Assembly: GCA_964574655.1 (NCBI GenBank)
Contig: CAZNOH010000002.1
Span: 29,620-93,619, forward strand
Origin: an uncultured Candidatus Saccharibacteria bacterium
Lineage (GTDB): Bacteria > Patescibacteriota > JABMPQ01 > JAQVVF01
DNA length: 64,000 nt
Direction: 5' to 3'
Below the pieces are notes generated by a model that was given only the letters and a program-made list of their open reading frames with translations, was not told the DNA's origin and ran no database searches. The position numbers and the translations under genes are program-made. Positions 1-61,957 of this stretch are shown piece by piece; the stretch's first letter is position 1; the number at the start of each line of letters is the position of its first letter.

Positions 1-571
1 TATCCTTCAAAACAATTGTTCTCAAGGCATAATTAAAAATCAAAGACAGAAAAATCGCTTCAGGCACAAATATTAACAAAGCTAGCATTAGTAATAATAC
101 AGCTCTGCCAAATAGTTGAAAATAAAAAAGTAAAAATACTGGAGTGCCAAGAATCATGAATGACAAAAATATAGTTAGTCCAAACAGTAACGATATTCCC
201 AAAATTCGCCAAAAATACTTTTTGCCAATCGCCAAACCATCCTTAACGCTTGTTTTCTCTCCTTTGTCTAACTTATCAGCACAACTAATTAAAGCGCTTT
301 GTGAAATTATGGATAATACCCATAATGCCAAGAAAATTAATAATAGGATTACCAGCATAATTATTATAAATGTTGTAGGGTTAAAACTGGTTAAGAAATT
401 TGCAACACTTGTATTGATTTGACTTGAGGTCGGCGGCTGTTCTAAATTAAAACTACCAAAATTCATTCCGCTTCCACCAGACATCAATGCAATAAACAAT
501 CCAAAAAACCACAGGAATTTATAATCCCAAGTTAGTTTAAAAGCACGTTTGACGATATTGATGTAGTCCAT
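1..571 (-). CDS. polytopic membrane protein, N-terminal part only (the gene runs off the window start)
   Basis: The reverse-strand ATG at 569-571 opens a hydrophobic, multi-TM-like reading frame that continues to position 1 and beyond. It is absent from the ORF track because no stop falls in the window. The 144..422 + ORF is its shadow. Confidence 0.4.
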   Translation of the reverse strand, partial: MDYINIVKRAFKLTWDYKFLWFFGLFIALMSGGSGMNFGSFNLEQPPTSSQINTSVANFLTSFNPTTFIIIMLVILLLIFLALWVLSIISQSALISCADKLDKGEKTSVKDGLAIGKKYFWRILGISLLFGLTIFLSFMILGTPVFLLFYFQLFGRAVLLLMLALLIFVPEAIFLSLIFNYALRTIVLKD

Positions 572-587
572 ATATTTGAAATTAAAA

Positions 588-1093
588 ATATTACGGATAT
601 TACGAGATATTACCGATATTACGTCTTTCTGCCGGCAGACAGGGATACTGTGACGTCATTTTTTAGGATAGCAGGAACTTATGTATTGATTTAAAATTTT
701 GTGAAGACTATTCAGCTTATAAATTAACACCTTAAATTCATCATTGGTTATTTTAGATCTATTCTTAAGCAAAAGCGTCCAATGCTTTGATTCTAATAAT
801 GATCCGCGAGAATTATAGTAAAATTTAATTCTATCTAGATAATGGAATCTACCATAACCTTCTGCAATGTTCGCACCAACTGAATCAACGGATCTTATGA
901 ATTGATCGCCTATTATCTTTTTATCTTGCCAAGCGAATCTATCGAAAATCTTCCAAGCATGATTGCTTAAATTGTACGCTAATTTATAAACAGCTAAATC
1001 TCCCAATTTAACATAATCTTTCATTGTCCCCCCAAAAGATTATTTAATATCTCAATATCAGTAATATCCGTAATATCTAATATCCGAATATCC
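588..1093. mobile_element. IVS-type cassette: inverted repeats of the ATATCCGTAATATC family flanking a four-helix-bundle gene
   Basis: The left arm at 588-626 (tattacggatattacgagatattaccgatattacg) is the reverse complement of the right arm at 1049-1093 (cagtaatatccgtaatatctaatatccgaatatcc). Confidence 0.5.
656..1024 (-). CDS. four-helix-bundle protein (TIGR02436; 23S rRNA intervening-sequence protein family)
   Basis: Carries the DSVGANIAEGYGR motif and the RGSLLE segment typical of this family, at about 120 aa. Confidence 0.75.
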   Translation of the reverse strand: MKDYVKLGDLAVYKLAYNLSNHAWKIFDRFAWQDKKIIGDQFIRSVDSVGANIAEGYGRFHYLDRIKFYYNSRGSLLESKHWTLLLKNRSKITNDEFKVLIYKLNSLHKILNQYISSCYPKK

Positions 1094-1098
1094 CGTGT

Positions 1099-2955
1099 TT
1101 ATTTTGTTTCAACTTCTAATTTCTCTGAGGTAATATTATTCTTGCCATTCATTAAAGTATTAAATTCTTCTTTTTCCATGACTTCATGATCAATTAAAGC
1201 ATTTGCGATTTCTTCTAGCTTTGCCTTATTTTTAACAATAGTCTCATTTGCAAGAATATATCCATTATCAACAAATCTTTTCACTTCTGCATCAATTTTT
1301 GCTGCTACAGCTTCAGAATAATCTCTTTGTTCTCCAATTTCTTTGCCTAAAAAAACTAATTCATCTTTCTGACCAAAAGTCATTGGGCCAAGATCAGACA
1401 TACCATAATCAGTCACCAATTTTCTGGCAACAGCAGTCACTTGTCTTAAATCAGAAGTCGCGCCAGTTGTTACGTCGCCAAAAATAATTTTTTCTGCGAC
1501 ATATCCGCCTAGCAATACCGCTATATCATCCAAGAATTCAGCTTTTGCATGAAAATGTTTTTCTTTTTCAGGAAGTTTAAGAGTATATCCAGCAGCTTGT
1601 CCTCTTGAAATTATAGAAATTTTTTGCACTGGATCAGCATTCGGCAACAAATCTGAAGTCAAAGCATGGCCTGCTTCATGATACGCTGCAATCTTTTTCT
1701 CTTCTGTAGATAGCATGAAACTTTTTCTTTCAGGTCCAAGCATAACTTTTTCTATTGCTTCAGTGCAGTTATCCATGCTAACAGTCTTCTTGTTTTTACG
1801 AGCTGCTGAAATTGCAGCCTCGTTCATTACATTTTTTAAATCAGCGCCAGAAAAGCCAGGAGTTCTTTGCGATAATACCTTAAGATCAACTTTCTTGTCC
1901 AATGGTTTGTTGTTTGCGTGAATTTTTAAGATTGCTTCTCTTGATTCCTTGTCTGGTAAATCCAAAATTACTCGTCTATCAAATCTGCCAGGGCGAAGCA
2001 GAGCTGGATCTAAAACATCAGGTCTATTAGTCGCTGCAATCACCACAATTCCAGAATTTGGAATAAATCCATCCATTTCAGATAAAATTTGATTCAAAGT
2101 TTGTTCTCTTTCATCATGAGATCCGCCTAATCCTGCGCCTCTGTGTCTGCCAACAGCATCAATTTCATCAATGAATATTAAGCATGGGGCAGTTTTCTTA
2201 GCTTTATCAAATAAATCTCTTACACGGGACGCGCCAACACCAACGAACATTTCCACAAATTCAGAACCAGAAATACTATAAAAAGGCACATTAGCTTCAT
2301 TTGAAACAGCTTTAGCTAATAAAGTCTTGCCTGTTCCTGGAGGGCCAATCAATAATACGCCTTTTGGAATTTCTGCACCAAGTTCTGAAAACTTTTTTGG
2401 ACTTTTCAAAAATTCTACAACTTCCCACAATTCTTCTTTTGCTTCTTTTGCGCCAGCAACATCTTTGAAAGCTATCTTCTTTATTCCTTTTTCTGGCTCA
2501 TATTTTTTTGCCCTTGATTCACCAAACATCATTGCTTTTGAGTTTGATTTTTGCAATCCTCTTGCCATGAACCAGATGAAAAAACCAACTAGCAAAAATG
2601 GAAGCAAGAAAGGCAAAATATTTGACAGCCAATACATTGTTCCAGACTGTTCTGAAACAATAATATTTACCTTAGCAAGTTTGTCAGGCTTGACTCCGTA
2701 ATTGTTTAAAGAATCAGTTAGAGACGCCTCTTCTTCTTTTTTTGCCTTTACTATTTTGTCATCAGCCTTTTTTATCTCTAATTCATTGCCATTGATTTTA
2801 ATTTCCTTGACTTGTTCGTTATTTATGTCAGATGTCAATTGCGTCAAAGAGATCTCATCAGTTTTTGTTAATGGTGTTTTATAAAAAGCAAAAATAGATG
2901 CGATTATAAAAAACACTAAAATCGCCAATAAAAAATTTTTGAGTATTTTTTTCAT
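1099..2955 (-). CDS. ftsH: ATP-dependent zinc metalloprotease FtsH
   Basis: N-terminal TM segment, Walker A GPPGTGKT, an AAA domain and the HEAGHA zinc motif; no SD. Confidence 0.95.
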
Positions 2956-2980
2956 AAATTAGTTAAAAGTTATAAAATAT

Positions 2981-3085
2981 AATACGAATACGAGTACGAA
3001 TAATGCGAATGATACGAATTGCAAATCGTCGTATTCGTAATTCGCAACATTCGCATTATTCGTATAGCCATTCGTATTATTATAT
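2981..3085. repeat. imperfect palindromic CGAAT/ATTCG-rich element, copy A
   Basis: aatgcgaatgatacgaattgcaaatcgtcgtattcgtaattcgcaacattcgcatt. Its reverse complement recurs at 58436-58518. Confidence 0.6.
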
Positions 3086-4048
3086 TTTTTCTAATAAACT
3101 AATTCTGTCATATTCTTTCCTAATTTGCAACCCCTTAATGTTCTTTAGAGAGCCAGTTTTTGCAGTTCTCAAAACTCTCAAAGCTTCTTCTAAATCTAAG
3201 AAACTGATATCCTTATATTTTGCTAATTTTAATCTCAAAATTGCTCTTTGCAATGACTTTTCTAAGGCTAAAAACTCATTCAATTTTAAAGAATTTTCAT
3301 CTAGACTTAGTTCGCTTAATTTAAGTTTAGCCATCTTCTCAATATAATCACAATCATCCTTTAATGTCTTTGCGCTTTGGCAAATTGTTGATCTAAAATT
3401 TTGATTATAACCTTCTTCTAAATAAGGCACTAATTCATGCCTAATTTTATTTCTCAAATATAATTTTTGTGAATTAGATGCATCAATTCTATGCTCTAAA
3501 TGATTTTCTTTCAAATAAAGCAAAATATTTCTTTTATAACAATCTAATAAAGGCCTAATAATATTATTTTGCTGATATTTAATTCCGCTCAAGCCCTTCA
3601 ATCCTGATCCTCTCAAGAAAAACATCAAAATAGTTTCCGCATCATCATCTCTATTATGCGCAACCGCAATTTTATTAGCCTTTTCTCTAGTCGAAATTTC
3701 ATTAAAATAATTATATCTAATTTCTCGGCATTTTGCTTCCAGTCCCTTATCATCAATCTTCAAATCTTTTACTTCTTTAACATAAATTGGCAAATTATAC
3801 TGCTCCGCAAGTTTACGAGCCAAAATCATATCCAAAAAAGAATCTTTTCCTCTTAAATTATAGTTTACATGCACCAAAATCAAATCAAAACCCAATTCTT
3901 GTTTTAAATTGGCCAAAATGTGAAGAAGGCAGACAGAATCTGGTCCAGCAGACAAGCCTAATACAATTCTGTCGGAAGAGTTGATTAGATTATTATCTTT
4001 AATTGTTTTCAAAACTTGTTCTTGCATAAGTAGCAAGTATTCTAGCAT
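3080..4048 (-). CDS. tilS: tRNA(Ile)-lysidine synthetase
   Basis: PP-loop SAGPDS motif near the N-terminus; about 320 aa. Confidence 0.85.
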   Translation of the reverse strand: MLEYLLLMQEQVLKTIKDNNLINSSDRIVLGLSAGPDSVCLLHILANLKQELGFDLILVHVNYNLRGKDSFLDMILARKLAEQYNLPIYVKEVKDLKIDDKGLEAKCREIRYNYFNEISTREKANKIAVAHNRDDDAETILMFFLRGSGLKGLSGIKYQQNNIIRPLLDCYKRNILLYLKENHLEHRIDASNSQKLYLRNKIRHELVPYLEEGYNQNFRSTICQSAKTLKDDCDYIEKMAKLKLSELSLDENSLKLNEFLALEKSLQRAILRLKLAKYKDISFLDLEEALRVLRTAKTGSLKNIKGLQIRKEYDRISLLEKI

Positions 4049-4082
4049 TAATCCAAAAATTTATCAAGGTTTTACGTTTCAG

Positions 4083-4170
4083 AGCGTTGGAGCTTCGGAC
4101 CGTCAGATCGTCAGAACGTCAGAACTTCCGACGCTCCGACGCTCTGACGCTCCGAAAATCCGACGCTCTA
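4083..4170. repeat. GC-rich tandem octamer array (CCGACGCT)n with a CAGAACGTCAGA leader
   Basis: ccgacgctccgacgctctgacgctccgaaaatccgacgct. The same family occurs at 25695-25788 and 25953-26045. Confidence 0.6.
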
Positions 4171-4253
4171 ATGCCTCCCAAACAAAAATCAGCGCTTCAC
4201 GCTGATCTTTTATAATATCTAATATCCGTAATATCGTAATTTCCAAATTTCCG

Positions 4254-5576
4254 TTATTCCTTTTTCTTTTCTTCAGACTTCTTTTTCTTCTTAGGCTTTT
4301 CTACTTTCTTTTCCTTCTTTTCTTTATCTTTTTTCTTATCTACAGATTTTTCTTCTTTTTTTCCTTTGTCCGCCGAAGCTTTAGCGGAGGTGGATTTTTT
4401 CTCTTCAGTCAACTCCTCGATCTCTTCTTCTTTCTTTTCAGAATCTAATTTTAAAGTTAATCCTAGTCTATGCTCTGCTGGCTCAATTGATAAGATTCTA
4501 AATTCTCTTTCTGATCCTATTACCAATTCTTTTTTAGCATCATCAATGCTGAACGGCAATTCAGAAACATGGACCAATCCATGAATATCTTTATCAAGTT
4601 GAATAAATATGCCGAATGGCTTTATTTCTTTTACAATTCCTTTTACAAGTTGGCCAACTTTATATCTCTTTACAGCTTCAATCCAAGGATCCCTTAATAA
4701 TTTTTTCATAGATAAAGTAATCTTTGAATCTTCAATGCCAATTATTTCTGCCTTTACTTTACCGCCGATTTTAACTAAGTTAGCTGGATCATCAACTCTT
4801 TGCCAAGACAATTCTGAAATATGGACCAAGCCTTCCAAGCCATCAAATTTTACAAAGATTCCAAAGTCAACTATTCCAGAAACTTCGCCTTCTACAACAT
4901 CACCGATTTTCACACTGCCGATTTTTTCTTTTTGTTTAGAAAAAGCAGCTTCCTTTTCTGAAATAATTAGTTTTTCATCTTTTGGATCAGCAGTCACAAT
5001 CTGAATTTTCATTTTTTTGCCAATGAAAGATTGCAGTTTTGACAATATCTTTTCTTGATCTCCGCCTTCAACTCTAGGATAATGCTCAGGTGTCAATTGT
5101 GAAACTGGCATAAAAGCAGGAATGCCAAATAAAGTGGTTAACAATCCGCCTTTATTTGCGCTCTGAATTTTAACAGTAATGATTTCTCTTTTGTCTCTTT
5201 TTTCATTCAATTCATCCCAAACTTCTTTCCTTGTTGCTTTTCTAAACGTTAGTTCTAAAATGTTTTCTTCATTTTCCATTTCCAAAATTGTGGCTTCAAC
5301 TTCATCGCCAACAGATAGCTCGCCATAAACATCCAAACTTTCCCAAAGCTCCTTACCACGAACTACGCCAATTCCATATTGACCCAAGTCAATATAAACA
5401 GCGTTCTTAGACATCTCAAGAACTTTGCCAATTAAAGTATCTCCAGGCTTTGGTACAACCTGAGCTTCTAATTGGTTCATGAAAGCTTCTTCTTCTTTCT
5501 TCTGTTCTAACTCTGTCTCTTTTACTTTTTCGCTGACAAGATTGTCTAGCGTCCTTAATTGTTTAGTGTTTTTCAT
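4254..5576 (-). CDS. rpsA: 30S ribosomal protein S1 with a lysine-rich C-terminal tail
   Basis: Multiple S1 domains (for example GKVLEMSKNAVYIDLG and GEVSGIVDFGIFVKF). The first 42 codons of the ORF as given in the track look non-native, so I prefer the start at MKNTKQ (ATG 5576-5574). Confidence 0.8.
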   Translation of the reverse strand: MKNTKQLRTLDNLVSEKVKETELEQKKEEEAFMNQLEAQVVPKPGDTLIGKVLEMSKNAVYIDLGQYGIGVVRGKELWESLDVYGELSVGDEVEATILEMENEENILELTFRKATRKEVWDELNEKRDKREIITVKIQSANKGGLLTTLFGIPAFMPVSQLTPEHYPRVEGGDQEKILSKLQSFIGKKMKIQIVTADPKDEKLIISEKEAAFSKQKEKIGSVKIGDVVEGEVSGIVDFGIFVKFDGLEGLVHISELSWQRVDDPANLVKIGGKVKAEIIGIEDSKITLSMKKLLRDPWIEAVKRYKVGQLVKGIVKEIKPFGIFIQLDKDIHGLVHVSELPFSIDDAKKELVIGSEREFRILSIEPAEHRLGLTLKLDSEKKEEEIEELTEEKKSTSAKASADKGKKEEKSVDKKKDKEKKEKKVEKPKKKKKSEEKKKE

Positions 5577-12505: not shown

Positions 12506-12898
12506 TTAACTTTTTTTAGTTTTAATCTTCAAAGCTATTTCATCACTCACTTTCCAGTAATCCGCCAATCTTTTGTATAAATCATTCGCCATCTCTTCAG
12601 AATAAGTATGCACTGACAAATTCCTGTCCGCAGTCATTTTCAAACACACTTCAACATCTTCTTCAGATAAATTCAACAAATTTCTCAATTCGCGAAAACA
12701 AGCTTTTGGCGAAAAACAATCAATTCCTTCAATTTCTTTCAAATAAGTTTTAACAGTTTTCCACAGCAATTCATAGCTAAATTCATATCGTTGAATTGCC
12801 GCGTCTCTGATAACATCCGAAAATTCCATATCCAAAACCTCTTTCCACGCCTTATTTGCTTTTTCTAATTGTTCTAATTTTTCTTTTAAGTAAGCCAT
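12506..12898 (-). CDS. HEPN-domain protein of the HI0074 family (nucleotidyltransferase substrate-binding protein; toxin component)
   Basis: Length and helical profile match the HI0074 family. It overlaps its upstream partner by 13 nt. Confidence 0.7.
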   Translation of the reverse strand: MAYLKEKLEQLEKANKAWKEVLDMEFSDVIRDAAIQRYEFSYELLWKTVKTYLKEIEGIDCFSPKACFRELRNLLNLSEEDVEVCLKMTADRNLSVHTYSEEMANDLYKRLADYWKVSDEIALKIKTKKS

Positions 12899-13170
12899 AT
12901 AATTTTGCTATTTAAATTTTTATCTCTAAATTCTTTTTCTACTTTATTAAAATCAACAACATCGAATTTAAAAGGCAACAAAGATTCTTCTAATTCATCT
13001 TTTAAATTTCTTAATTTATCTTCATCAATCTTGCCATCAACAAATCCAAGATCAATGTCAGAAAATTTATTTTCAGTTACGCTTGAGCCAAAAACAAAAA
13101 ATCTTTCTTTATTTTTTGTATATTTATTAATAATTTCTTTAATTTTTTCTAAGTATTTTTTGTCTATCAT
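12886..13170 (-). CDS. minimal nucleotidyltransferase (MNT, HI0073-like; antitoxin component)
   Basis: FGSSVTENKFSDIDLGF matches the GS...DxD nucleotidyltransferase motif. Confidence 0.7.
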   Translation of the reverse strand: MIDKKYLEKIKEIINKYTKNKERFFVFGSSVTENKFSDIDLGFVDGKIDEDKLRNLKDELEESLLPFKFDVVDFNKVEKEFRDKNLNSKIIWLT

Positions 13171-14616: not shown

Positions 14617-14690
14617 TACCAGAATCGAACTGGCACCTTAACCTTGGCAAGGTTACGTACTACCACTATACTAATCCCGCGAATAGCATC
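14617..14690 (-). tRNA. tRNA-Gly(GCC) with an encoded CCA
   Basis: Acceptor stem GCGGGAT/ATCCCGC, anticodon loop TTGCCAA, and a 3' TCCA encoded in the DNA. Confidence 0.8.
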
Positions 14691-14731
14691 AACTTTTAAC
14701 CTTATGAACTTTAAGAACTTTATAACTAATC

Positions 14732-15017
14732 TGCCGGAGGGCAGAATCGGACTGCCGACACAACGGTTTTCCGTTTGGACTATATCATATTCCTAAATAA
14801 TAGGAATTTGGGCGCTTCCCATGCATTAAAATGCATAGTACTCCTGAAAAGGATAGTCTCTACACCTGCCAAGCACACAAAATGTGTGCTTGGATTGGCT
14901 CGGGATTGTCAAATAAATTATCTGATGTTCCCCGAATTCACCCAATTTGCTTAATTCATTACTGAATTAAGGGCCGAAAACCTTCAGCCGTTTGCTCTAC
15001 CACTGAGCTACTCCGGC
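14732..15017 (-). tRNA. tRNA-Phe(GAA) interrupted by a group I intron (exons 15017-14985 and 14771-14732)
   Basis: The exons join to GCCGGAGTAGCTCAGTGGTAGAGCAAACGGCT|GAAAACCGTTGTGTCGGCAGTCCGATTCTGCCCTCCGGCA. The anticodon is GAA, and the intron lies between positions 33 and 34 after U33. Confidence 0.75.
14772..14984 (-). ncRNA. group I self-splicing intron in the tRNA-Phe anticodon loop
   Basis: On the RNA strand: a P-like element aaattgggtgaattcgggg, Q aatcccgagc (P4 pairing UCGGG/CCCGA), R gtgtagagacta and S atgatatagtcc (P7 pairing GACUA/UAGUC). A U sits at the 5' splice site and a terminal G (omega G) ends the intron. A GGCC internal guide sequence can pair with the exon end GGCU. Confidence 0.75.
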
Positions 15018-15048
15018 ACAATAACGTCAAAAACTGTTATATCAAAAA

Positions 15049-18276: not shown

Positions 18277-18593
18277 TGAATTATTTTGCCCTATTTCAAG
18301 CCTTTTTATGAGGCTTTTTTTAATGTTGAAAACAGCCAAATACTCAAAATCATAATGCCTTATCTAAGCCAAAAAGCATTGATATTTAGCAAATACTATT
18401 GACAAAATAATAAAGGTATGCTAAGATGACAAGCTATAGATTAAGCAATAAAAATAAAACCTTAGTACCTTCTAATTAGTTTTAGCCTCAAATTTGAGAG
18501 AAAGGCAGATCAGATATTAAATATTAGTTATACAGATCTTACGACTTTTTCTCAATTTTGAGGCAACGGCCAATCACGGCCTGGAGGCAGACA

Positions 18594-18653
18594 ATGCGTT
18601 ACGGAATCATCGGGATCCTGTTCGTTTGTGGCTCTTCCAGAATCAACAATTAA
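18594..18653 (+). CDS. candidate 19-aa hydrophobic peptide MRYGIIGILFVCGSSRINN
   Basis: GGAGG lies 6 nt upstream of the ATG, in a 600-bp non-coding region that has a second TTGACA-N17-TAAGAT promoter at 18399-18427 and a long stem at 18485-18563. Confidence 0.25.
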   Translation: MRYGIIGILFVCGSSRINN

Positions 18654-18908
18654 ATTGCTGATTGTGGAAGGAAATAAATAATCAACTTTAATGTTACAAG
18701 ATATTATTAAAGTAAAGATTCTAGATCTTTACTCAATGATCATGACTTCTCCATTCGGTTTATACCTAATAATGAAGAAGTAACAAAAATCTCCAAGCAG
18801 GGGATTTTTTGTTTGGAAAAAATCTGTTAAAATAAAACTAAGTTATAAAGTCCATAAAGTTATAAAGTTTTTAAAGTACTTTACAAACTTTATAACTTTA
18901 CAAACTTT

Positions 18909-24141: not shown

Positions 24142-25641
24142 ATGCAGGTAGATGCTACCAAGTTCAACCAGAATCCAGTTGACGAGAATCATATCAGAGT
24201 TGTGCCAAAAGAAACAGCCATGAGGGTTGCAAAACAAGAGATTTCTTCCAGCGGTCAGAACTACGGCGCATACTATGAATTCCAAAATCAGAGTATGACA
24301 ATCCAGAAGGTTAATGGACGGCTCTATTGGGTCGCTCCAATGGAATTCGCTGGATATTTCAAGTCAGTAAATGCAAAGTTTACGCCAGGATACATCATGA
24401 TTTCAGCTGAAGATGAAACGGAAAAGCCGAAGTTGGTAACAAAGAAAGCTGATGGATCATCGATCAAAATGATCTATCTGATGTCAGCATGGTTCGGTGA
24501 TGAACTTGATCGATTCCTGTATAACAAGCATCCAGATTGGTATCTCGACGACTTCTCCTTTGAAGTCGATGAGGAATTGAATCCATGGCAGGTTGCGACA
24601 GTCCTTGATCGTTTCGCTGGCTACAATTACTACACTGTAAAAGGCGTACTAGTTGTGAGTCCAGAAACTGGTGAAGAAAAATTCTACAAGGTTGAAGATA
24701 TTCCAAGCTGGGTTGATCGAGCCGTTCCGCAAAAATTGGCAATCAATTTTTTCAGATGGTGGGGCACTTACAAGTATGGTTGGATGAACAACGTGAATTC
24801 CAATCCAGATTTGAAGAAACCAACTGAAATTAGTGGCCAGTATGCAGTCGAAATGATTTGGGGATCTGATGATGAACCGTACTGGTTCACAGGATTCACT
24901 TCTATGAACGACAATGATCAAGCTCTTGTTGGCAAAGCTTTTATGGATACAAGGACAGGAAGGTTCTTCTACATTCCAGCAAGTGGAGCCACAGAGGAAA
25001 GAGTTGCAAGTGACATTCACGCAGTACTCGGCAAGCAAACAGTCGATCTGGCTGTAAGTGAACCGATTCCCTACAATATGTATGGACAACCTAACTGCTG
25101 GGTAGCGCAAGTCATTTCGATGCCAAGCGGTGAAGGCCAAGCACAACATAGTGGCGGAGCGCTTGTCAAAATCGCGATTGTCAATGGTGATACAACAGCA
25201 CCACCAGTCTTGGCTGAAAGCAAGCGAGAGGCACTAACACTCTTCAAGCAGTCTCTTGCTAGAAATGGAATCCAGACAACGGTCAGCGATACGAGCGCGC
25301 GGAAAGAACTGAGGGGAAGTATCCAGCGACTCAGCATCATCCCTCAGGAAAATTCAACAAGCATTCGATTCAGTCTCGAAGGCAGTTCTCTGGAGTTTGC
25401 CTGCGATTTGTTGAAATCTGATCAGAGCAAAACGTCACTGACGCTTGCTAAGCCAGGTGATGTTGTAAATATTATCTATTTCGAAACCAAGGAAAGACTC
25501 GTCACTGTCGATGACTTCTCAGTTGAAGGCCAAGTCCCAGTCACCTCTCCAAACCAGGAGAGAATGGACGAGACTGTTCGACAGCAACGTGAACTCGAAC
25601 AAGAGCAGGCTCCCCCAGTTCAACCAGTTCCCGCACAATAA
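24142..25641 (+). CDS. hypothetical 499-aa protein (islet)
   Basis: Long ORF with no recognisable motifs; GC about 44% against an AT-rich host. Confidence 0.55.
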   Translation: MQVDATKFNQNPVDENHIRVVPKETAMRVAKQEISSSGQNYGAYYEFQNQSMTIQKVNGRLYWVAPMEFAGYFKSVNAKFTPGYIMISAEDETEKPKLVTKKADGSSIKMIYLMSAWFGDELDRFLYNKHPDWYLDDFSFEVDEELNPWQVATVLDRFAGYNYYTVKGVLVVSPETGEEKFYKVEDIPSWVDRAVPQKLAINFFRWWGTYKYGWMNNVNSNPDLKKPTEISGQYAVEMIWGSDDEPYWFTGFTSMNDNDQALVGKAFMDTRTGRFFYIPASGATEERVASDIHAVLGKQTVDLAVSEPIPYNMYGQPNCWVAQVISMPSGEGQAQHSGGALVKIAIVNGDTTAPPVLAESKREALTLFKQSLARNGIQTTVSDTSARKELRGSIQRLSIIPQENSTSIRFSLEGSSLEFACDLLKSDQSKTSLTLAKPGDVVNIIYFETKERLVTVDDFSVEGQVPVTSPNQERMDETVRQQRELEQEQAPPVQPVPAQ

Positions 25642-25694
25642 TATAGTTATCCGTACCTTTTTTCAAACCACATTCGTGGTTTTTTTATTTATTG

Positions 25695-25788
25695 GAACTT
25701 CGGAGTTTCGGAACTTCAGATCGTCAGAACGTTCCGACGTTCCGACGTTCCGACGTTCCTAAGCTCCGACAGTCCGAAGCTCTGTTCC
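25695..25788. repeat. tandem octamer array (CCGACGTT)n of the GACGTTCC family
   Basis: cagaacgttccgacgttccgacgttccgacgttcc. Confidence 0.6.
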
Positions 25789-25952
25789 TAACCTGTGCAT
25801 AACTATGGTATAACTTGTGTTTTGGTGTTCGCTAGTTATTGGTATTCTTTTTAATAAATGCTATAATTATGTCGAAAGTGTCGGACACTTTAGACAGATG
25901 CTTGAATAAGGCAAAAAAGCGTGTTATAGCAAAAATGTTCCACGTGGAACAA

Positions 25953-26045
25953 TCGGAGCGTCGGAGAATCAGAACGTCAGATCGTCGGAGCGTAGGACGT
26001 TCCGACGTTCCGACGTTCTGAAGCTCCGAAGATCTGACGCTCCAA
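25953..26045. repeat. tandem octamer array of the GACGTTCC family, second copy in the same orientation
   Basis: tcagaacgtcagatcgtcggagcgtaggacgttccgacgttccgacgttctg. Confidence 0.6.
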
Positions 26046-26862: not shown

Positions 26863-26912
26863 ATTTAGTCTGGCAATATTAGAATGTTCCACGTGGAACA
26901 TTTCGAATCTTT

Positions 26913-26983
26913 CGGGGCATAGTATACCGGTAGTACGCGTCCTTCGGGAGGATGTAGACTGGGTTCGATTCCCAGTGCCCCGA
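26913..26983 (+). tRNA. tRNA-Pro(CGG), copy 1
   Basis: C1-G72 pair, anticodon loop TTCGGGA, T-arm CTGGGTTCGATTCCCAG. Confidence 0.75.
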
Positions 26984-26990
26984 TTCGAAT

Positions 26991-27068
26991 TATAAATAAC
27001 TAAATGAAAAATAACAAAATTGCCGTCGGGTCGATAATTTAGTTATTTTGTTATTTAGTTATTTATAA
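26991..27068. repeat. tRNA-associated hairpin element (arms ATAACTAAAT...AACAAAATT)
   Basis: aaataactaaatgaaaaataacaaaatt-gccgtcgggtcgat-aatttagttattttgttatttagttattt. A homolog occurs at 30409-30493. Confidence 0.6.
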
Positions 27069-29965: not shown

Positions 29966-30335
29966 TAAAAATCGCGAATTTACACAAATTCAGCACAAAT
30001 TTCACAAATAAAAAATGACGTTTTAACACGTCATTTTTTTATGTTTGCTAGAATTGGCTAAGGTTGGAGTGAGATTTAATGAAAAATCTTTTTAAAGATC
30101 ATTCATATAAACCTTAGCCAGTTTTAGGAAACAGTTCAGTATGTATATCTTGTCAATAGTATTAACATAATATAGCAGTATTTTGCCTTGTTTAAGGCAA
30201 ACAACGTTTAGATAATTTTGTAATATTTAAAAATAGAATACTAATCAACAATATGCTTGATTTATTTATAAAATGTATTAGAATAAGGATAACAAGTAGC
30301 TTGGAGCAATAGATCGCAAGCTCGTATCAAATTTT

Positions 30336-30406
30336 CGGGGTGTAGTATACCGGTAGTACGCGTCCTTCGGGAGGATGTAGACTGGGTTCAATTCCCAGCA
30401 CCCCGA
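30336..30406 (+). tRNA. tRNA-Pro(CGG), copy 2
   Basis: Identical to copy 1 except for compensatory acceptor-stem changes (CA/TG to TG/CA) and a G-to-A change in the T-loop. Confidence 0.75.
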
Positions 30407-30408
30407 AA

Positions 30409-30493
30409 TTAATAACTAAATAACTAAATTCAAAATAACAAAATTATCGTTGATAAATTTAGTTATTTAGCATTTTGTTATTTAGTTATTTTT
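30409..30493. repeat. tRNA-associated hairpin element, second copy
   Basis: aataactaaataactaaattcaaaataacaaaatt-atcgttgat-aaatttagttatttagcattttgttatttagttattt. Confidence 0.6.
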
Positions 30494-30497
30494 AAAT

Positions 30498-32469: not shown

Positions 32470-32550
32470 CGCGATGATAATTTAATATCCGAATATCTTA
32501 ATATCGGTAATATCTTTATTCATAAAGATATTCGGATATTAGGATATTAA
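32470..32550. repeat. orphan palindromic hairpin of the AATATCCG family between pilB and pilC
   Basis: aatatccgaatatcttaatatcggtaatatc...gatattcggatattaggatatt. Confidence 0.55.
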
Positions 32551-32564
32551 AATATTAAACTAGC

Positions 32565-38496: not shown

Positions 38497-39570
38497 ATGA
38501 GTAACTTTTTCACTCCTAAAAAACAAGCATTCGGTATAGAAATAAGCGATGCTTCAATAAAAGTTCTCCAACTGAAAAAAGGAGGCAAATTTTGTAAACT
38601 TCTAGGCTATAATATTTTAAAAATTCCTCAAGGATTAGTAGTCTCAGGTGAAATAAAAGACACGAATATACTTGCCACTCATATTCAAAGAGCTGTGCAA
38701 AATGCAAAGCCAAGAAGAATTTCAACCTCAAATGTGGTTTGCTCGCTTCCAGAAAACAAAACATTTGTCAGGATATTAGAAATTCCTCAGATGAGCAAAG
38801 AAGAGCTTAGCGAAGGAATTAAATGGCAAGCAGAGCAATATATACCATTGCCAATAGACACAGTTTATTTAGATTGGCAAATTATTGAAACAGTAGATAG
38901 CAAACAAAGAATTCTAGTTGCCGCTGCACCCAAAAAGCTTGTTGATGACTACATAAAAGCATTAAAAACAGCCAAGCTAAAGCCTTTAGTTTTGGATCTT
39001 GAAGAAGCTGCTGAAGCGCGTGCTTTGATTTCTGAAGATCAAAAAGAAGCAAGTCTGATAGTTGATATCGGCGCCACAAAAACAGTATTTATTGTTCATG
39101 ATCGAAAAATAGTTCCTTTTGCATCCAATACTCAAGAAGTTTGTGGAAATAAATTTACCGAAAATATTAGCAAAGCCTTAAAAATAAGAATTGAAGATGC
39201 AGAAGTTAAAAAAACAGCTTGTTGCAGTTCAGAGCTATCTTCCGAAGAAAAAGCATTGCTGCAATCAATTTATCCATTATTTGATTCTCTTGCTATTCAG
39301 ATAACCAAAATCATTAATTACTATCAAAATCATTTCAAATCTGCAAATCCTATCAGCAACATTATTTTGTGTGGTGGAGGCGCAGGGATATCTGGCATAG
39401 TTCCTCATTTAACATTAAAATTAAAAATGAAAATAGCTGTTGCTAATCCGCTTGCTAATTTATCAGTAAAAAAGAATTTACCAATAAATAAAAAAGACAT
39501 TTTAAGATTAACAACTGTTATTGGGCTTGGAATTAGAGGTTCAGAAATCATTGAATATAGTAAACTATAG
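38497..39570 (+). CDS. pilM: type IV pilus assembly protein PilM (actin-like ATPase fold)
   Basis: FGIEISDASIKVLQL N-terminus and a two-lobed actin-like length; start placed at MSNFF. Confidence 0.8.
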   Translation: MSNFFTPKKQAFGIEISDASIKVLQLKKGGKFCKLLGYNILKIPQGLVVSGEIKDTNILATHIQRAVQNAKPRRISTSNVVCSLPENKTFVRILEIPQMSKEELSEGIKWQAEQYIPLPIDTVYLDWQIIETVDSKQRILVAAAPKKLVDDYIKALKTAKLKPLVLDLEEAAEARALISEDQKEASLIVDIGATKTVFIVHDRKIVPFASNTQEVCGNKFTENISKALKIRIEDAEVKKTACCSSELSSEEKALLQSIYPLFDSLAIQITKIINYYQNHFKSANPISNIILCGGGAGISGIVPHLTLKLKMKIAVANPLANLSVKKNLPINKKDILRLTTVIGLGIRGSEIIEYSKL

Positions 39571-40103
39571 GATGATGCCAATCTACAAATCTTATGCCAA
39601 TTTACAAATTGCTAATATGTTAATGTCATGAATAATTTTACGAATTTGGTTTATCCAGAACTTTCGTATAAGATAACGGGTGTTTTATTTGATACTCATA
39701 ATAGTTTAGGAAGATTTTGTAACGAACAACAATATTCAGATTTTCTTGAGGACAATCTGAAGAAAATGAAAATAAAATATGAACGTGAAAAAATATTACC
39801 AAAATCTTTTGAAGAAGAACAAAAGGGACGAAACAGAATTGATTTTTTGATTGAAGACAAAATAATTTTAGAAATCAAAGCAAAAAGAATCGTTTTGAGA
39901 GAAGATTATTATCAAGTTAAAAGATATTTAATTGCCTTTAATAAAAAATTAGGCCTACTCGTAAATTTCAGAGACAAATATATTAGGCCAAAGCGTATTT
40001 TAAACTCCTCAGTAAAAGAGTATGAAAGTGTTAACAATCAGCAAATCGGCATAGCAAATTAGCAATTTGTAAATTGGCATAAAATTAGCGTATTGGCATC
40101 ATT
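39571..40103. mobile_element. cassette flanked by inverted repeats, carrying a GxxExxY gene and inserted between pilM and pilN
   Basis: The left arm at 39571-39619 (gatgatgccaatctacaaatcttatgccaatttacaaattgctaat) is the reverse complement of the right arm at 40050-40103 (attagcaatttgtaaattggcataaaattagcgtattggcatcatt). The left arm starts right after the pilM stop codon. Confidence 0.6.
39628..40062 (+). CDS. GxxExxY family protein (TIGR04256; IVS-associated)
   Basis: YPELSYKITGVLFDTHNSLG N-terminus and the downstream IDFLIEDKIILEIKA...LGLLVNF segment match the family pattern. Confidence 0.8.
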   Translation: MNNFTNLVYPELSYKITGVLFDTHNSLGRFCNEQQYSDFLEDNLKKMKIKYEREKILPKSFEEEQKGRNRIDFLIEDKIILEIKAKRIVLREDYYQVKRYLIAFNKKLGLLVNFRDKYIRPKRILNSSVKEYESVNNQQIGIAN

Positions 40104-40117
40104 AAATCCAAACGTCC

Positions 40118-40669
40118 ATGATCACAATCAATCTATTATCATCTGAAGAAAAAAAGGATATTTCCTACGAAAGAAGCAATATCTCTCTTGTCGGTTCTTT
40201 TGTCATACTTGGCTTTGTCCTTATAATGCTTACTTTTGTGCTTTACACAATCAGCGACGTTCAGAAAGGCACTTTAAATGCAGTAGCTTCTGAAACAAAA
40301 AACATTGAAAAATTTCTCAATCAAGAAGGGAATGCACAAATTGAATCAAAGATAAAACAAATCAACAATTACTTAAGCACAATCAAGGCAATAGAAGAAG
40401 ATAGAACTGATTTTGCTAAAACACTTACAGAAATTGCTAACCAAACTATCACAGGCATCAGAATTTTTGACATTAAGCTAAACAAGACTGACAAAAACTT
40501 TGAAATTTCAGGCAATGCAGTTGCAAGAGATAATTTAGTGCAATTCACTAGCAATCTAGGAAAGACAGGCTATTTTGAAAGCATTGAATCTCCTCCATCA
40601 AACTTAATAAGCCCAACAGATATTAGCTTTAAAGTAACCGGCAAATTAACAGATAAAGCGTTAAAATGA
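40118..40669 (+). CDS. pilN: type IV pilus protein PilN
   Basis: N-terminal ITINLL motif followed by one TM segment and a coiled-coil region. Confidence 0.75.
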   Translation: MITINLLSSEEKKDISYERSNISLVGSFVILGFVLIMLTFVLYTISDVQKGTLNAVASETKNIEKFLNQEGNAQIESKIKQINNYLSTIKAIEEDRTDFAKTLTEIANQTITGIRIFDIKLNKTDKNFEISGNAVARDNLVQFTSNLGKTGYFESIESPPSNLISPTDISFKVTGKLTDKALK

Positions 40670-45167: not shown

Positions 45168-45493
45168 TAGCAGTATAAGCTATTCGCAATCTAAAGCCCC
45201 TGGAAGAGGGGCTTTTTTGTGTTCAAAATTAAGCCACAGACAGGGATATATGTCAAATAGGCACTTTTCTAGGCAATATAGCAAAAGGCGTGTTCTAGCT
45301 TCAAATATTGAGTTTTTAAGGTATTGGACAGGTGTTATTTTATAATAATCAATAATGTATGCCAGAATCCCTTGACTGACAAATATCAATGGCTAGAGTG
45401 TATTTATTGTTTTTTTTAATAGCTAAAATAACAATGCTTTGCTTCATTTAAGCCTAAGCATGTAATATTTAAGCCCTTTTTTCAGAAATAGCC

Positions 45494-45562
45494 TTGACAC
45501 TACTTGCTCAGATGTTAGTATGTAATGTTTTGAGGTAATCACGTATGGTACGTGATTTTTTG
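45494..45562 (+). promoter_or_regulatory. promoter TTGACA-N16-TAGTAT followed at once by an intrinsic terminator (second leader of the same type)
   Basis: ttgacactacttgctcagatgttagtat...atcacgtatggtacgtgattttttg. It lies about 125 nt upstream of the SLT gene. Confidence 0.5.
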
Positions 45563-45685
45563 TTCCAATAAAAACGTGCTTTGCGCTTAGAAATATTGGC
45601 TTATGAAAGCCATATTATTGAGCATAAAGCATACGAAATGCTGACTAAATAGCAATATTTGTTAGCATGAGTTGCTTTCAATTAA

Positions 45686-56855: not shown

Positions 56856-58418
56856 CTAATATAGTCTTATCAATCCATTGATCGAATTTCCATCTTCAAA
56901 GCCAAGAGTCAGGTCGCCTTTCAATTCAATTCCAAAATTATTCAAAAAATCTAAAGAATTCAAGTACAGCAATCCATTGTTTGCTTTAATCTGTGCGCTA
57001 ATTACAGCATTTTCGTTTTTAAAAGATTTCAAAATTTCTTTCAGCGAATCATTTATACTGGCAAGTATTAATTTATTATCAAACAGGCAATAACTAAAAC
57101 TATCTAAATTTTTCTTTTCATCTTTCAAAACTAAAGTTCTGATTTTAAATTCCTCAAAATCAGCATTAACAAATTTAAATTTAGAAACATCTGGCAACAG
57201 TTCAATTCCTTCTGATCCATCAGCTAATTCAATCTTTTTCTCTCGAGGTTTTAATCTCGCAAAATATTTTATCAATCCATTTTCAATTTCCACCATTTTT
57301 GCTGACAATTTATTTTCATTGCCAACTTCAGAAATTATTGCCCAAGCTGTTTTGTCTTTTTTGCCAGGCAAAATAATGAATTCAAAATTATTATCAAATA
57401 AAGGCATCAAATCTTTTTCAAAGCTCAATCCATAATTATTATTAAGCTGATCCTCAAAGCCATTCAAAAATTGTAAAAAATTAATATTTGAATCAGCTTC
57501 TTTTTTTAAATCTTGATAAGTATTTTGTAAATTATTTCCTGAATAAGCCATAATCGTTTTATTTGGCAAGAATTTAAATGGCTCTTTCAAGGATAATTGC
57601 TTATTTAAATTCAAATCAGAATATATTTTTAATTCAATATTTGAATTATCTTCTTTTGCGGTTAAAAAGAAATAATTATTATCAAAAATAAATTTATCAA
57701 TACTATTTAAAGCATTGAAATTTGGAAGCAAAGCAAACAGATCATTATTCTTTCTAGAAAATGCATACAAAAAAGAATCAGTTAAAACTTTTTTGTTAAC
57801 CTGAGAAAAATATTTATCATATCTCAAACTTTTCGCTTGATCAAAATTTGCGTCAATTACTTTTCTCAAAGCATCATCATTGTCAGAAATGACTAAAACA
57901 TTATTAATTTCCAAATAGCTAAATGCATTTTGATTAGCTAATCTCACATTATTAATCTTAACATCTCGATAATCAAAAAAACTGAGCTTAGAATTATTAA
58001 TTACATTATTTTTGAATAATTCCAAATTAGCATCTTTAAAGATAAAAATATTTGATTTATCTAAACTAGCATAAGCGCTTTCCGTGCCTAAAACAGACTC
58101 CAAATTGTTTGGCAAAATATTTTTCGCTATTTTTGAAGCTAGAATCAAATCATTATATTTTAAATTTTCATTGCTGATTTTTGATTTATCAATATAAACA
58201 TAAAATTGAACGTTATTTGGAACTAGCTTAACTAATGAATCAGAATTTTTTGCTTTAAAATAATCAAAAATAAAAAAACCAGCCAACGTTAAAAGGCCAG
58301 CAATGATTAAAATAGTTGCCAAAACTAAAATTACTCTTGGCCAAATATGGCGTTTTCTACCTTTTATTTCTTGTACTGGTGAAATAAAGATCTGTTCTTT
58401 TTTCTTGATTATATCCAT
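56856..58418 (-). CDS. large N-terminally anchored protein of unknown function, paralog 1
   Basis: One N-terminal TM segment; the start at MDIIKKK is preferred because the longer ORF reads through repeat element B. Confidence 0.55.
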   Translation of the reverse strand: MDIIKKKEQIFISPVQEIKGRKRHIWPRVILVLATILIIAGLLTLAGFFIFDYFKAKNSDSLVKLVPNNVQFYVYIDKSKISNENLKYNDLILASKIAKNILPNNLESVLGTESAYASLDKSNIFIFKDANLELFKNNVINNSKLSFFDYRDVKINNVRLANQNAFSYLEINNVLVISDNDDALRKVIDANFDQAKSLRYDKYFSQVNKKVLTDSFLYAFSRKNNDLFALLPNFNALNSIDKFIFDNNYFFLTAKEDNSNIELKIYSDLNLNKQLSLKEPFKFLPNKTIMAYSGNNLQNTYQDLKKEADSNINFLQFLNGFEDQLNNNYGLSFEKDLMPLFDNNFEFIILPGKKDKTAWAIISEVGNENKLSAKMVEIENGLIKYFARLKPREKKIELADGSEGIELLPDVSKFKFVNADFEEFKIRTLVLKDEKKNLDSFSYCLFDNKLILASINDSLKEILKSFKNENAVISAQIKANNGLLYLNSLDFLNNFGIELKGDLTLGFEDGNSINGLIRLY

Positions 58419-58435
58419 TAGATTATGTGAAAATA

Positions 58436-58518
58436 TAATACGAATAAACGTACAAATAATGCGAATGTTGCGAATTACGAATACGACGATTTGCAATTCG
58501 TATCATTCGTATTATTAT
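58436..58518. repeat. CGAAT/ATTCG palindromic element, copy B (reverse complement of 2981-3085)
   Basis: aataatgcgaatgttgcgaattacgaatacgacgatttgcaattcgtatcattcg. Confidence 0.6.
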
Positions 58519-61396: not shown

Positions 61397-61759
61397 ATGT
61401 TAAGCAAAAAGAAAAAGACTTCATTAATGAAGAAGTATGCAACTCACAAAGGTGACACTGGTTCACCAGAGGTTCAAATCGCTATTTTAAGCGCAGAAAT
61501 TGAAGAATTGGCAGAACATTTAAAGACTCACCGCAAAGACAATTCTTCAAGACGAGGTTTGCTTGGAAAAGTTCATCAAAGAAGAAAATTAATGACTTAT
61601 CTTTCCAAGGAAAATGAAGAAGCATACGCCAGCATAGTCAAAAAGCTAAAGCTTAAAAAAATAAAGAAAGAAACTGAAGTTGAAAAGAAAAGAGCAGAAG
61701 GAATCAGAAAAATTGGACAAGATCCAGAACAAGAAGAAACAGAAGAAGGCATGGAATAA
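61397..61759 (+). CDS. rpsO: 30S ribosomal protein S15 with a K/E-rich C-terminal extension
   Basis: GDTGSPEVQIAILSAEI...HRKDNSSRRGLLGKVHQRRKLMTYL. Confidence 0.85.
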   Translation: MLSKKKKTSLMKKYATHKGDTGSPEVQIAILSAEIEELAEHLKTHRKDNSSRRGLLGKVHQRRKLMTYLSKENEEAYASIVKKLKLKKIKKETEVEKKRAEGIRKIGQDPEQEETEEGME

Positions 61760-61957
61760 AGCAATAAAAGTTTCCGCGTCTTTTGCGTACGATTCTGCGT
61801 TATTCTGCGCAGAAACACGCTGAATTTAACGCAGAAGACGCAGAATTTATATAACAGAATTTATATTAATTAATTACGGAATTCTCTCTCAACTTGATCT
61901 CCAAATAATCAGACATACGTCTGCAATTTGTAGGTCAATAGAGAAGAATCAAAACAA

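Follow-up and report, generated by a model that had tools for sequence, protein, structure and literature searches.

The 64-kb stretch of DNA analysed here, referred to throughout as the window, is chromosomal DNA of a bacterium of the Patescibacteria, or candidate phyla radiation (CPR); its G+C content is 34% and short tandem repeats are abundant in it. The subject of this report is a small gene near its beginning, which encodes a four-helix-bundle (4HB) protein and is enclosed by two inverted arms of tandem units, an arrangement termed here the 4HB cassette. On the minus strand the genes run in the order tilS (3080-4048), ftsH (1099-2955), the 122-aa open reading frame (ORF) of the 4HB protein (656-1024) and a DUF7544 gene, which extends from 571 to the window edge. 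The cassette is flanked by ftsH and the DUF7544 gene, with tilS and an S1-domain gene also nearby. The features of the locus are as follows, with the evidence for each in brackets.

1 to 571, minus strand: downstream host gene, the N-terminal part of a DUF7544 membrane-protein gene (PF24400), cut by the window edge (gene table of locus L001)
585 to 623, minus strand: 3' (downstream) arm (TRF array 588-623, period 9; inverted pairs; closing stem)
628 to 639, no strand: small G+C palindrome, TCTGCCGGCAGA, between the 4HB stop codon and the 3' arm (sequence; minimum-free-energy (MFE) and centroid folds)
656 to 1024, minus strand: 4HB protein gene, 122 aa, of the TIGR02436/PF05635 "S23p / 23S rRNA IVS protein" family, IVS standing for intervening sequence (hidden Markov model (HMM) matches above curated cut-offs)
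1028 to 1033, minus strand: run of six G residues, 4-9 nt 5' of the 4HB ATG (read from the sequence)
1045 to 1094, minus strand: 5' (upstream) arm (TRF arrays 1041-1093; inverted pairs I1, I3, I4 and I8; closing stem)
1099 to 2955, minus strand: upstream host gene, ftsH (ORF list; Pfam content of the identical gene in locus L002)

The 4HB protein is a plain member of the TIGR02436/PF05635 family. It scored 83.3 bits against the TIGR02436 HMM (cut-off 24), with residues 12-117 aligned to profile positions 1-107 of 109, and 82.9 bits against PF05635, 23S_rRNA_IVP (cut-off 33.8). Homologues numbered 1888, the best of which are annotated as Falkowbacteria, Magasanikbacteria or Patescibacteria group, and an alignment of 28 relatives (27 of them CPR by annotation or inference) contained 27 invariant columns. 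The family motif has been given as GxxRxxxSxxxNxxE (PMC3936711); RxxxSxxxNxxE is present in the window protein as R44, S48, N52 and E55, the last three of which are invariant in the 28 sequences. The AlphaFold2 monomer model (pLDDT 94.9) places helices at residues 11-29, 32-57, 62-88 and 94-118 and predicts an up-and-down four-helix bundle like those of Xcc0516 (2GSC) and BT_0352 (2RLD), which Foldseek matched to the model with TM scores of 0.88/0.94 (root-mean-square deviation 1.0) and about 0.8, respectively. A homopentameric ring is a trait listed for this S23p family, and we know of no catalytic activity for the protein.

Foldseek also matched the model to Avd (4DWL and 8UBE; TM scores of about 0.76-0.88), the accessory protein of diversity-generating retroelements (DGRs), and PF05635 is the Pfam family that matches Avd-like DGR proteins (PMC10053308). 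Sequence identity to Avd is nevertheless only about 9-10%, and Avd fits less well than the nearest structures, 2GSC and 2RLD, both of which are free-standing S23p proteins. No reverse transcriptase was found among the neighbouring genes or the large ORFs of the window, while template and variable repeats were not specifically searched for. The identification of the gene as the avd gene of a DGR was rejected for want of a reverse transcriptase at those places, and we consider it very improbable.

The 5' arm, which starts after a gap of 5 nt from the ftsH stop codon, consists of six GATATT-type units of 7-9 nt (GGATATTC, GGATATTA, GATATTAC, GGATATTAC, TGATATT and GAGATATT). The 3' arm has four units (TAATATC, GGTAATATC, TCGTAATATC and CGTAATAT), with a run of five T residues after them, and ends 16 nt before the DUF7544 ATG; the spacer, from the stop codon of ftsH to the start of the DUF7544 gene, is taken up in full by the arms of the cassette. 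TRF returned the 9-nt unit ATATTACGG in 3.9 copies at 588-623 and AATATCCGT in 4.8 copies at 1054-1093; inverted pairs between the two arrays covered 37 nt at 76% (I1), 18 nt at 94% (I3) and 16 nt at 100% (I4). When one spacer was aligned with the reverse complement of the other, a local-alignment score of 40 was obtained, compared with 13.9 +/- 2.2 for shuffled sequences, none of which reached 40 in 2000 trials; only 2 of 654 positions of the same geometry along the window scored 40 or more, and the 16-mer ATATTACGGATATTAC had 7 matches at three mismatches or fewer where 0.69 were expected. Low-complexity, A+T-rich spacers could yield inverted repeats by chance, all the more in a window of this composition with so many short tandem repeats, but the arm score exceeds the mean of the shuffles by about 12 standard deviations, and most of the 79 homologous loci described below show the design too. 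We take a chance origin of the arms to be refuted by the shuffles, the flank complementarity and the array statistics, its probability being practically nil.

In the 526-nt sense RNA, positions 1094-1061 were predicted to pair with 585-622 and positions 1059-1045 with 644-658, giving a closing stem in both the MFE and the centroid structure; in both, the palindrome at 628-639 formed a local hairpin within the big stem. The fold z-score of the 4HB cassette was -3.6. An original prediction, made from the letters of this stretch, had proposed a 4HB gene between related inverted arms of tandem units, bounded at 588 and 1093. The bounds were right to within a few bases (the closing stem runs from 585 to 1094), and both points on which the prediction had been staked, namely that the arms are related on alignment and that the protein is recognised by its family HMM, came out in its favour.

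The 4HB gene is transcribed in the same orientation as both of its neighbours, ftsH and the DUF7544 gene. Between the ftsH stop codon and the 4HB start no sigma-70-like site was found, nor was a canonical (intrinsic) terminator found at the cassette; the idea that the cassette itself serves as a promoter or intrinsic terminator was rejected because these consensus sites are absent. The G6 run at 1028-1033 is a possible Shine-Dalgarno-like site of the 4HB ORF.

To place the cassette among its relatives, loci homologous to it were compared. A metagenome scan for DUF7544 gave one locus, and synteny was instead followed through FtsH homologues, which gave four syntenic loci (L084-L087), in all of which the DUF7544 gene is syntenic. 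At the TilS-FtsH-[ ]-DUF7544 site, the 4HB cassette is present in the window and in L085 and absent in L084 and L086/L087: L084, with an FtsH 91% identical to that of the window, has a 188-nt spacer without a 4HB gene, and in L086/L087 the spacer, of 124 nt, is a hairpin of CAAATTT units that contains no gene. L085 and L086 are close relatives (98.2% identity in FtsH, 93.4% in DUF7544), yet L085 alone of the pair holds a 4HB gene, with short ATATT-unit arms. Among close relatives, one and the same chromosomal site thus gains and loses cassettes of this design, and the check for presence/absence polymorphism that the original prediction had suggested gave a positive answer.

The 4HB proteins of the window and L085 share 64.5% identity, compared with 74-87% for the flanking genes, and the window protein is closer (71%) to a 4HB protein from an unrelated context than to that of L085; these values are read most simply as gain or replacement that took place independently at the one site. 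ATATT-unit arms were found in all four relatives examined at 64-71% identity (L098, L101, L004 and L085). L098 lies in the context Memo-[ ]-YebC-RuvC, and it, L101 and L004 all occupy other neighbourhoods than the window cassette; since the closest of the relatives examined carry the ATATT arm type in unrelated neighbourhoods, the type recurs with this 4HB lineage, whereas the units are different in other 4HB cassettes and can differ inside a single genome. Three Logan contigs with an identical 4HB protein (L001-L003) have a cassette that is base-for-base the same as that of the window, and were for this reason uninformative about polymorphism in the repeat number of the arms.

The same gene string varies at a second spacer too, the one that separates the S1-domain gene from tilS. 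A short opposite-strand Peptidase_M50-like gene occupies it in L084 (3275-3700) and L086 (3492-3881); this gene is absent from L085 and from the window, where positions 4049-4253 hold hairpins, a terminator-like stem and a solitary GATATT array in its place.

The generality of the design was assessed in 79 loci with relatives of the window 4HB, obtained by a scan of one genome per species and belonging to CPR groups, Bacteroidota, Gammaproteobacteria, Omnitrophota, Campylobacterota and others; in all, about 90 related places were compared. Conserved 23S or 16S motifs were found within 4 kb of the 4HB gene in none of the 79. Complementarity between the upstream and downstream flanks was at or above the 95th percentile of a null of mismatched flank pairs in about 47 of 83 loci. 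Arrays of period 6-10 lay within 160 nt of the 4HB ORF in 66 of the 79 loci, on both sides in 44, and tandem arrays made up 16.4% of 4HB flanks compared with 1.2% elsewhere. The arm units vary among loci, and two copies from a single genome can differ as well (GTCATTG, GGTTCATT, GAAATTAG, GGAAATAAAT, AGATTAAG and others), but despite the differing units the two arms within each locus are complementary, which amounts to covariation on a large scale, structure being kept without sequence. The 5' arm starts a median of 1 nt after the upstream stop codon (interquartile range -4 to 9, n=40), and the 3' arm ends near the next start (median 12.5 nt). Of 66 loci, 54 had neighbours co-directional with the 4HB gene on both sides, compared with a baseline of 56.8% for ordinary genes of the same loci (p = 1.6e-5); relative to the 4HB gene, the neighbour orientation "++" occurred 54 times and "--" twice.

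Two further observations concern the arms of these loci. Among 45 arm pairs (L004-L085 and the window), pairs of a 5'-arm G with a 3'-arm C outnumbered the reverse by 303 to 79 (p = 5e-32), a strong asymmetry that is not present in six cassettes of the GxxExxY family described below. Locus L070 (arms at 3835-3891 and 4364-4453) and locus L078, from the same Saprospiraceae metagenome-assembled genome, have pure heptamer arms, (GTCATTG)n and (CAATGAC)n; GTCATTG is the STRR2 repeat of cyanobacteria, TTGGTCA, in rotated form. This hints at a kinship of STRR repeats and 4HB cassettes, a tentative lead: the sole plasmid match (Pseudanabaena, 37% identity) had no clear arms, and among open-access papers and preprints none was found that ties STRR heptamers to 4HB cassettes.

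Elsewhere in the window, a second gene is enclosed by inverted arms, and several hairpins or arrays related to one or the other cassette carry no gene:

39572 to 40102, plus strand: GxxExxY (PD-(D/E)XK, TIGR04256) cassette, after pilM (arms 39572-39622 and 40052-40102; ORF 39628-40062)
2974 to 3103, no strand: ORF-less hairpin filling the TilS-FtsH spacer (inverted pair I5; z = -9.7; aligns to the GxxExxY arm consensus)
58417 to 58516, no strand: second copy of this ORF-less hairpin, between two DUF3352 genes (86% identical to 2974-3103 over 105 nt, inverted)
32477 to 32557, no strand: gene-less hairpin between pilB and pilC, of the GATATT-type unit family (inverted pair I16; spacer fold z = -6.1; PilB and PilC Pfam matches)
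4213 to 4244, no strand: solitary array of AATATC/GATATT units in the S1-TilS spacer, with no partner arm nearby (repeat searches)

The GxxExxY ORF scored 80.6 bits against TIGR04256 (cut-off 35) and also matched PF13366. Its arms, 51 nt each and 86% complementary, form the closing stem of the predicted fold (z = -8.8), and the cassette lies directly 3' of pilM (identified by a PilM match) within a type IV pilus gene string. Five GxxExxY relatives in other CPR genomes are likewise embedded between genes, in the contexts MacB/FtsX-[ ]-response regulator, YcaO-[ ]-nitroreductase, FtsX-[ ]-HTH, RmlD-[ ]-RmlA and ArgRS-[ ]-IleRS; no GxxExxY relative was found in viral contigs. Across these five genomes (L089-L096), and in spite of the unrelated insertion contexts, the arm sequence is conserved, with the consensus ATGATGCnAATnTGCnAATnTAATGCnAATnnTACGAATTGCnAAT, and the case for turnover of the cassettes is stronger for the GxxExxY family than for the 4HB family. 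The arms end in ATGATGC...GCATCAT (L089, L090, L094, L096 and the window at 39568-40118). At several GxxExxY loci the upstream TGA or the downstream ATG overlaps the arm ends (agTGATGCG, GCATCATGgag), and because of this overlap the element may supply or preserve the stop and start codons of its host.

Rfam found no rRNA gene in the window, in which it finds 12 tRNAs. The original prediction had described both protein families as free intergenic cassettes far from any rRNA gene; their location outside rRNA stands, but "intergenic" describes them poorly, as the cassettes fill stop-to-start spacers in co-directional strings of genes and not loose intergenic DNA.

The ORF-less hairpin at 2974-3103 and its copy at 58417-58516 have arms that align to the GxxExxY consensus, with 15 invariant columns in 14 arms, and on account of this alignment the hairpin family looks like a GxxExxY cassette without its ORF. 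The nearest gene-less relative of the 4HB cassette in the window is the pilB-pilC hairpin at 32477-32557: GATATTCGGATATTAG in its 3' arm and TAATATCGGTAATATC in its 5' arm are each a 16-nt exact match to a 4HB arm, but the order is inverted with respect to the cassette, the C-rich arm being 5' and the G-rich arm 3'. A junction between two cassettes, or the junction of a circle, would show such an inversion. Copies belonging to several hairpin families are scattered over the window, with identities of 81-86%. The claim of an active or recently active pool of hairpin elements was thus supported by the presence and absence of cassettes, by the conserved GxxExxY arms and by the dispersed ORF-less copies, "active" being demonstrated solely in the sense of evolutionary gain, loss or replacement.

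These findings raise the alternative that the arms act at the level of DNA, in a mobile element of the REPIN/RAYT or MITE (miniature inverted-repeat transposable element) kind. A mobilising enzyme would then recognise the arms, as terminal inverted repeats or as hairpins of single-stranded DNA, the GxxExxY nuclease (and somehow the 4HB protein too) would serve mobilisation, the gene-less hairpins would be non-autonomous derivatives, and the stem in RNA would be a by-product. The conservation of ATGATGC...GCATCAT arms in five unrelated contexts, the ORF-less hairpins that fit their consensus, the dispersal of hairpin families and the two exact 16-mers of the pilB-pilC hairpin all agree with such an element, as does the lack of a strand-specific wobble signature, detailed below. 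It is less easily reconciled with a 4HB protein that has no known catalytic activity, with 4HB units that differ within one genome, which would be hard for a single sequence-specific enzyme, or with sites at which no target-site duplication was seen and no boundaries can be defined; moreover, a purely DNA-level mechanism does not predict a co-orientation of 54 to 2. We lean against this alternative while regarding it as possible; it is not exclusive of the explanation that we favour, and both can hold.

Structured spacers are not confined to relatives of the two cassettes. A fold z-score of -5 or below was found for 16 of the 59 intergenic spacers of the window, a somewhat generous count in that the scores derive from mononucleotide shuffles, and 13 of the 16 lie between co-directional features, including tRNA genes. 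Gene-less hairpins likewise span the distance from a stop codon to the next start, and L086 has one exactly where L085 has its cassette. All this would be expected if intercistronic hairpins were an ordinary feature of CPR hosts (REP-like stabilisers, processing sites or terminators) and the 4HB gene a vertically inherited one that happens to lie inside. However, genes enclosed in hairpins in this manner are also found in Bacteroidota, Gammaproteobacteria and other phyla, the type of arm unit goes with the 4HB clade through different gene contexts, and the cassette is present or absent beside FtsH proteins of 98% identity, with 4HB proteins at the same site only 64.5% identical between neighbours of 74-87%; an ordinary host feature is, in our judgement, unlikely.

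The window contains other structured or repeated spacers. A G+C-rich hairpin family with units ACGTTCCG / TCGGAGCG has copies at 25691-25783 and 25953-26045, about 170 nt apart and 3' of the ORF at 24142-25641, and a third copy, at about 81% identity, at 4079-4172; no similarity to 4HB or GxxExxY proteins was found in the stretch between the copies within 25691-26045. A tRNA gene together with a 3' hairpin (units AATAACTAAAT / ATTTAGTTATT) is duplicated at 26910-27068 and 30333-30495 (82% identity); as each of these hairpins has a tRNA gene on either side, it would form part of a multi-tRNA precursor. Four long spacers of 296-632 nt (14681-15048, 18277-18908, 29966-30335 and 45390-45685) have fold z-scores of -5.5 to -7.3 and no Rfam match at the gathering threshold, and could hold divergent structured RNAs or more hairpin elements. 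A 40-nt palindrome with CGCAGAA-type units lies at 61772-61845, just 3' of the S15 gene (61397-61759) and between convergent genes. On the minus strand at 12506-13170, an HI0074-family nucleotidyltransferase substrate-binding protein (TIGR01987) adjoins a Pol-beta-type nucleotidyltransferase (PF18765), a pair that looks like a toxin-antitoxin module of the MNT/HEPN type.

The explanation that we favour, with a confidence no better than even, is that the 4HB cassette is a copy, outside rRNA, of the type of element known as an IVS of 23S rRNA, with a turnover of its own, and that it is transcribed by read-through into a stem that RNase III cuts. Given that neither a promoter-like site in the interval from ftsH to the ORF nor a canonical terminator at the cassette was found, read-through from ftsH is probable and would transcribe the cassette without a promoter of its own. 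In the transcript the arms would pair into a stem of about 45 bp, as the folds predict, and RNase III would probably cut it, by analogy with rRNA IVSs that carry the same gene family. The cut would release a monocistronic 4HB mRNA and part the flanking cistrons while doing the host operon little harm; that rRNA and essential operons can both house the element would be explained by such processing. The arms probably grew by slippage, which would account for their make-up of tandem units, since pairing in a shifted register tolerates insertions and deletions. Its strong conservation (27 invariant positions in 28 relatives) argues that the 4HB protein is used, and by analogy with Avd it may bind nucleic acid, possibly its own stem.

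Several points weigh against this explanation. Read-through, formation of the stem in vivo and RNase III cleavage are all three inferred. In the relatives, the sites free of 4HB hold unrelated structured spacers and none is a clean empty site, for which reason neither a target-site duplication nor insertion boundaries could be defined at the FtsH-DUF7544 site. In the 45 4HB arm pairs, mismatches that would be G:U on the sense strand were not in excess of A:C mismatches (56 vs 47, p = 0.43), and with no such excess nothing marks the stem as selected at the level of RNA on that strand; a role of the arms in DNA fits equally well, although it is compatible with one in RNA. The analogy with IVSs may also be incomplete, because the Coxiella protein is probably not made and the window 4HB is strongly conserved.

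A broader and more tentative proposal, which we consider possible but would not call probable, is that all of these belong to one two-tier hairpin family found across CPR, Bacteroidota and other phyla. Its stems, built of 7-10-nt units, would lie in stop-to-start junctions and, as IVSs, in rRNA helices; 4HB (Avd-like) or GxxExxY proteins encoded in the loop would propagate or maintain the hairpins, and the gene-less hairpins would be non-autonomous. The stem would bring the stop codon next to the following start, whether through RNase III or by juxtaposition, such that the host operon keeps working.

Taken alone, the window locus is one of thousands of 4HB genes, and its value is the architecture that it exposes. 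S23p 4HB and GxxExxY proteins are very abundant and, to our knowledge, neither has a known function; rRNA IVSs, where these proteins first came to light, have been an unexplained curiosity for 30 years. Through the cassettes, rRNA IVSs, operon hairpins and the two proteins can be linked in a way that is open to test. If rRNA IVSs are indeed the visible special case of an element of operon spacers, the proteins gain a testable genetic context in their own arms, and CPR genomes gain a named class of dispersed repeats that shapes operon transcripts. 23S_rRNA_IVP genes occur inside cas operons (PMC3936711), and the "association" of 4HB genes with cas and other operons would then be seen more simply as promiscuous insertion. 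For annotation, tandem-unit arms can be mistaken for mini-arrays, and cassettes for functional members of an operon. Open-access papers and preprints, the coverage of which is incomplete, do describe rRNA IVSs and the Avd homology, but in them we found no description of tandem-unit arms, stop-to-start placement, co-orientation or ORF-less relatives outside rRNA, and a regular cassette architecture outside rRNA that is prone to gain and loss appears to be undescribed.

Four known systems invite comparison. The Correia, or nemis, MITEs of Neisseria, reportedly the work of De Gregorio et al. in 2002-2003, have a long stem that is an RNase III substrate in Neisseria mRNA; they have no ORF, form a family of fixed sequence and duplicate a TA target. 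The cassettes resemble them in their terminal inverted repeats, in a fold with a long stem and, as is probable here, in co-transcription with the neighbouring genes, but differ in that they carry an ORF, that the units vary from one cassette to another and that no target duplication was found. REP/REPIN sequences and their RAYTs are said to have been described by Nunvar in 2010 and by Bertels and Rainey in 2011. They too comprise dispersed intergenic palindromes together with a gene bracketed by inverted copies, between co-directional genes; in the window, hairpins that share sequence with gene-bracketing repeats are clear for the GxxExxY arms, while for the 4HB arms there are only the two 16-mers in inverted order. 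Unlike RAYTs, the cassette genes encode a 4HB protein and a PD-(D/E)XK nuclease and not an HUH/Y1 (IS200/IS605-like) transposase, the arms are arrays of 7-10-nt units where REPs are a single short palindrome, and the cassettes are themselves multi-copy and change location. Avd shares with the 4HB protein the four-helix-bundle fold and the Pfam/CDD superfamily, and is set apart by the low sequence identity, the closer match of the protein to 2GSC and 2RLD and the lack of a nearby reverse transcriptase.

The closest system is the rRNA IVS. IVSs with an S23p/4HB ORF are known from Leptospira, Coxiella burnetii, Xanthomonas and Brucella, the classical sites being the 23S (helix 25 or 45) or the 16S rRNA gene. 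The Coxiella IVS has a 28-bp terminal stem and is excised by RNase III at mapped cleavage sites; two to three tandem heptamers, GACAGAT, whose number varies among strains, lie beside its S23p ORF, which is decaying and probably untranslated (PMC4990558). In CPR, insertions in both 16S and 23S rRNA carry 23S_rRNA_IVP ORFs (PMC11270868). The 4HB cassette shares with these the protein family, an ORF in the loop of a stem of terminal inverted repeats, short tandem repeats adjoining the ORF, a patchy presence among close relatives and, if read-through occurs, the sense orientation within a host transcript. It differs in filling a stop-to-start spacer between protein genes, with no rRNA helix, in arms that are longer and wholly made of tandem units, in a protein that is strongly conserved where the Coxiella ORF decays, and in that RNase III excision, demonstrated for IVSs, is here a probable step. 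Because the defining location differs while all else matches, classification of the 4HB cassette as an rRNA IVS would be wrong; it and the classical IVS are evidently cassettes of one kind.

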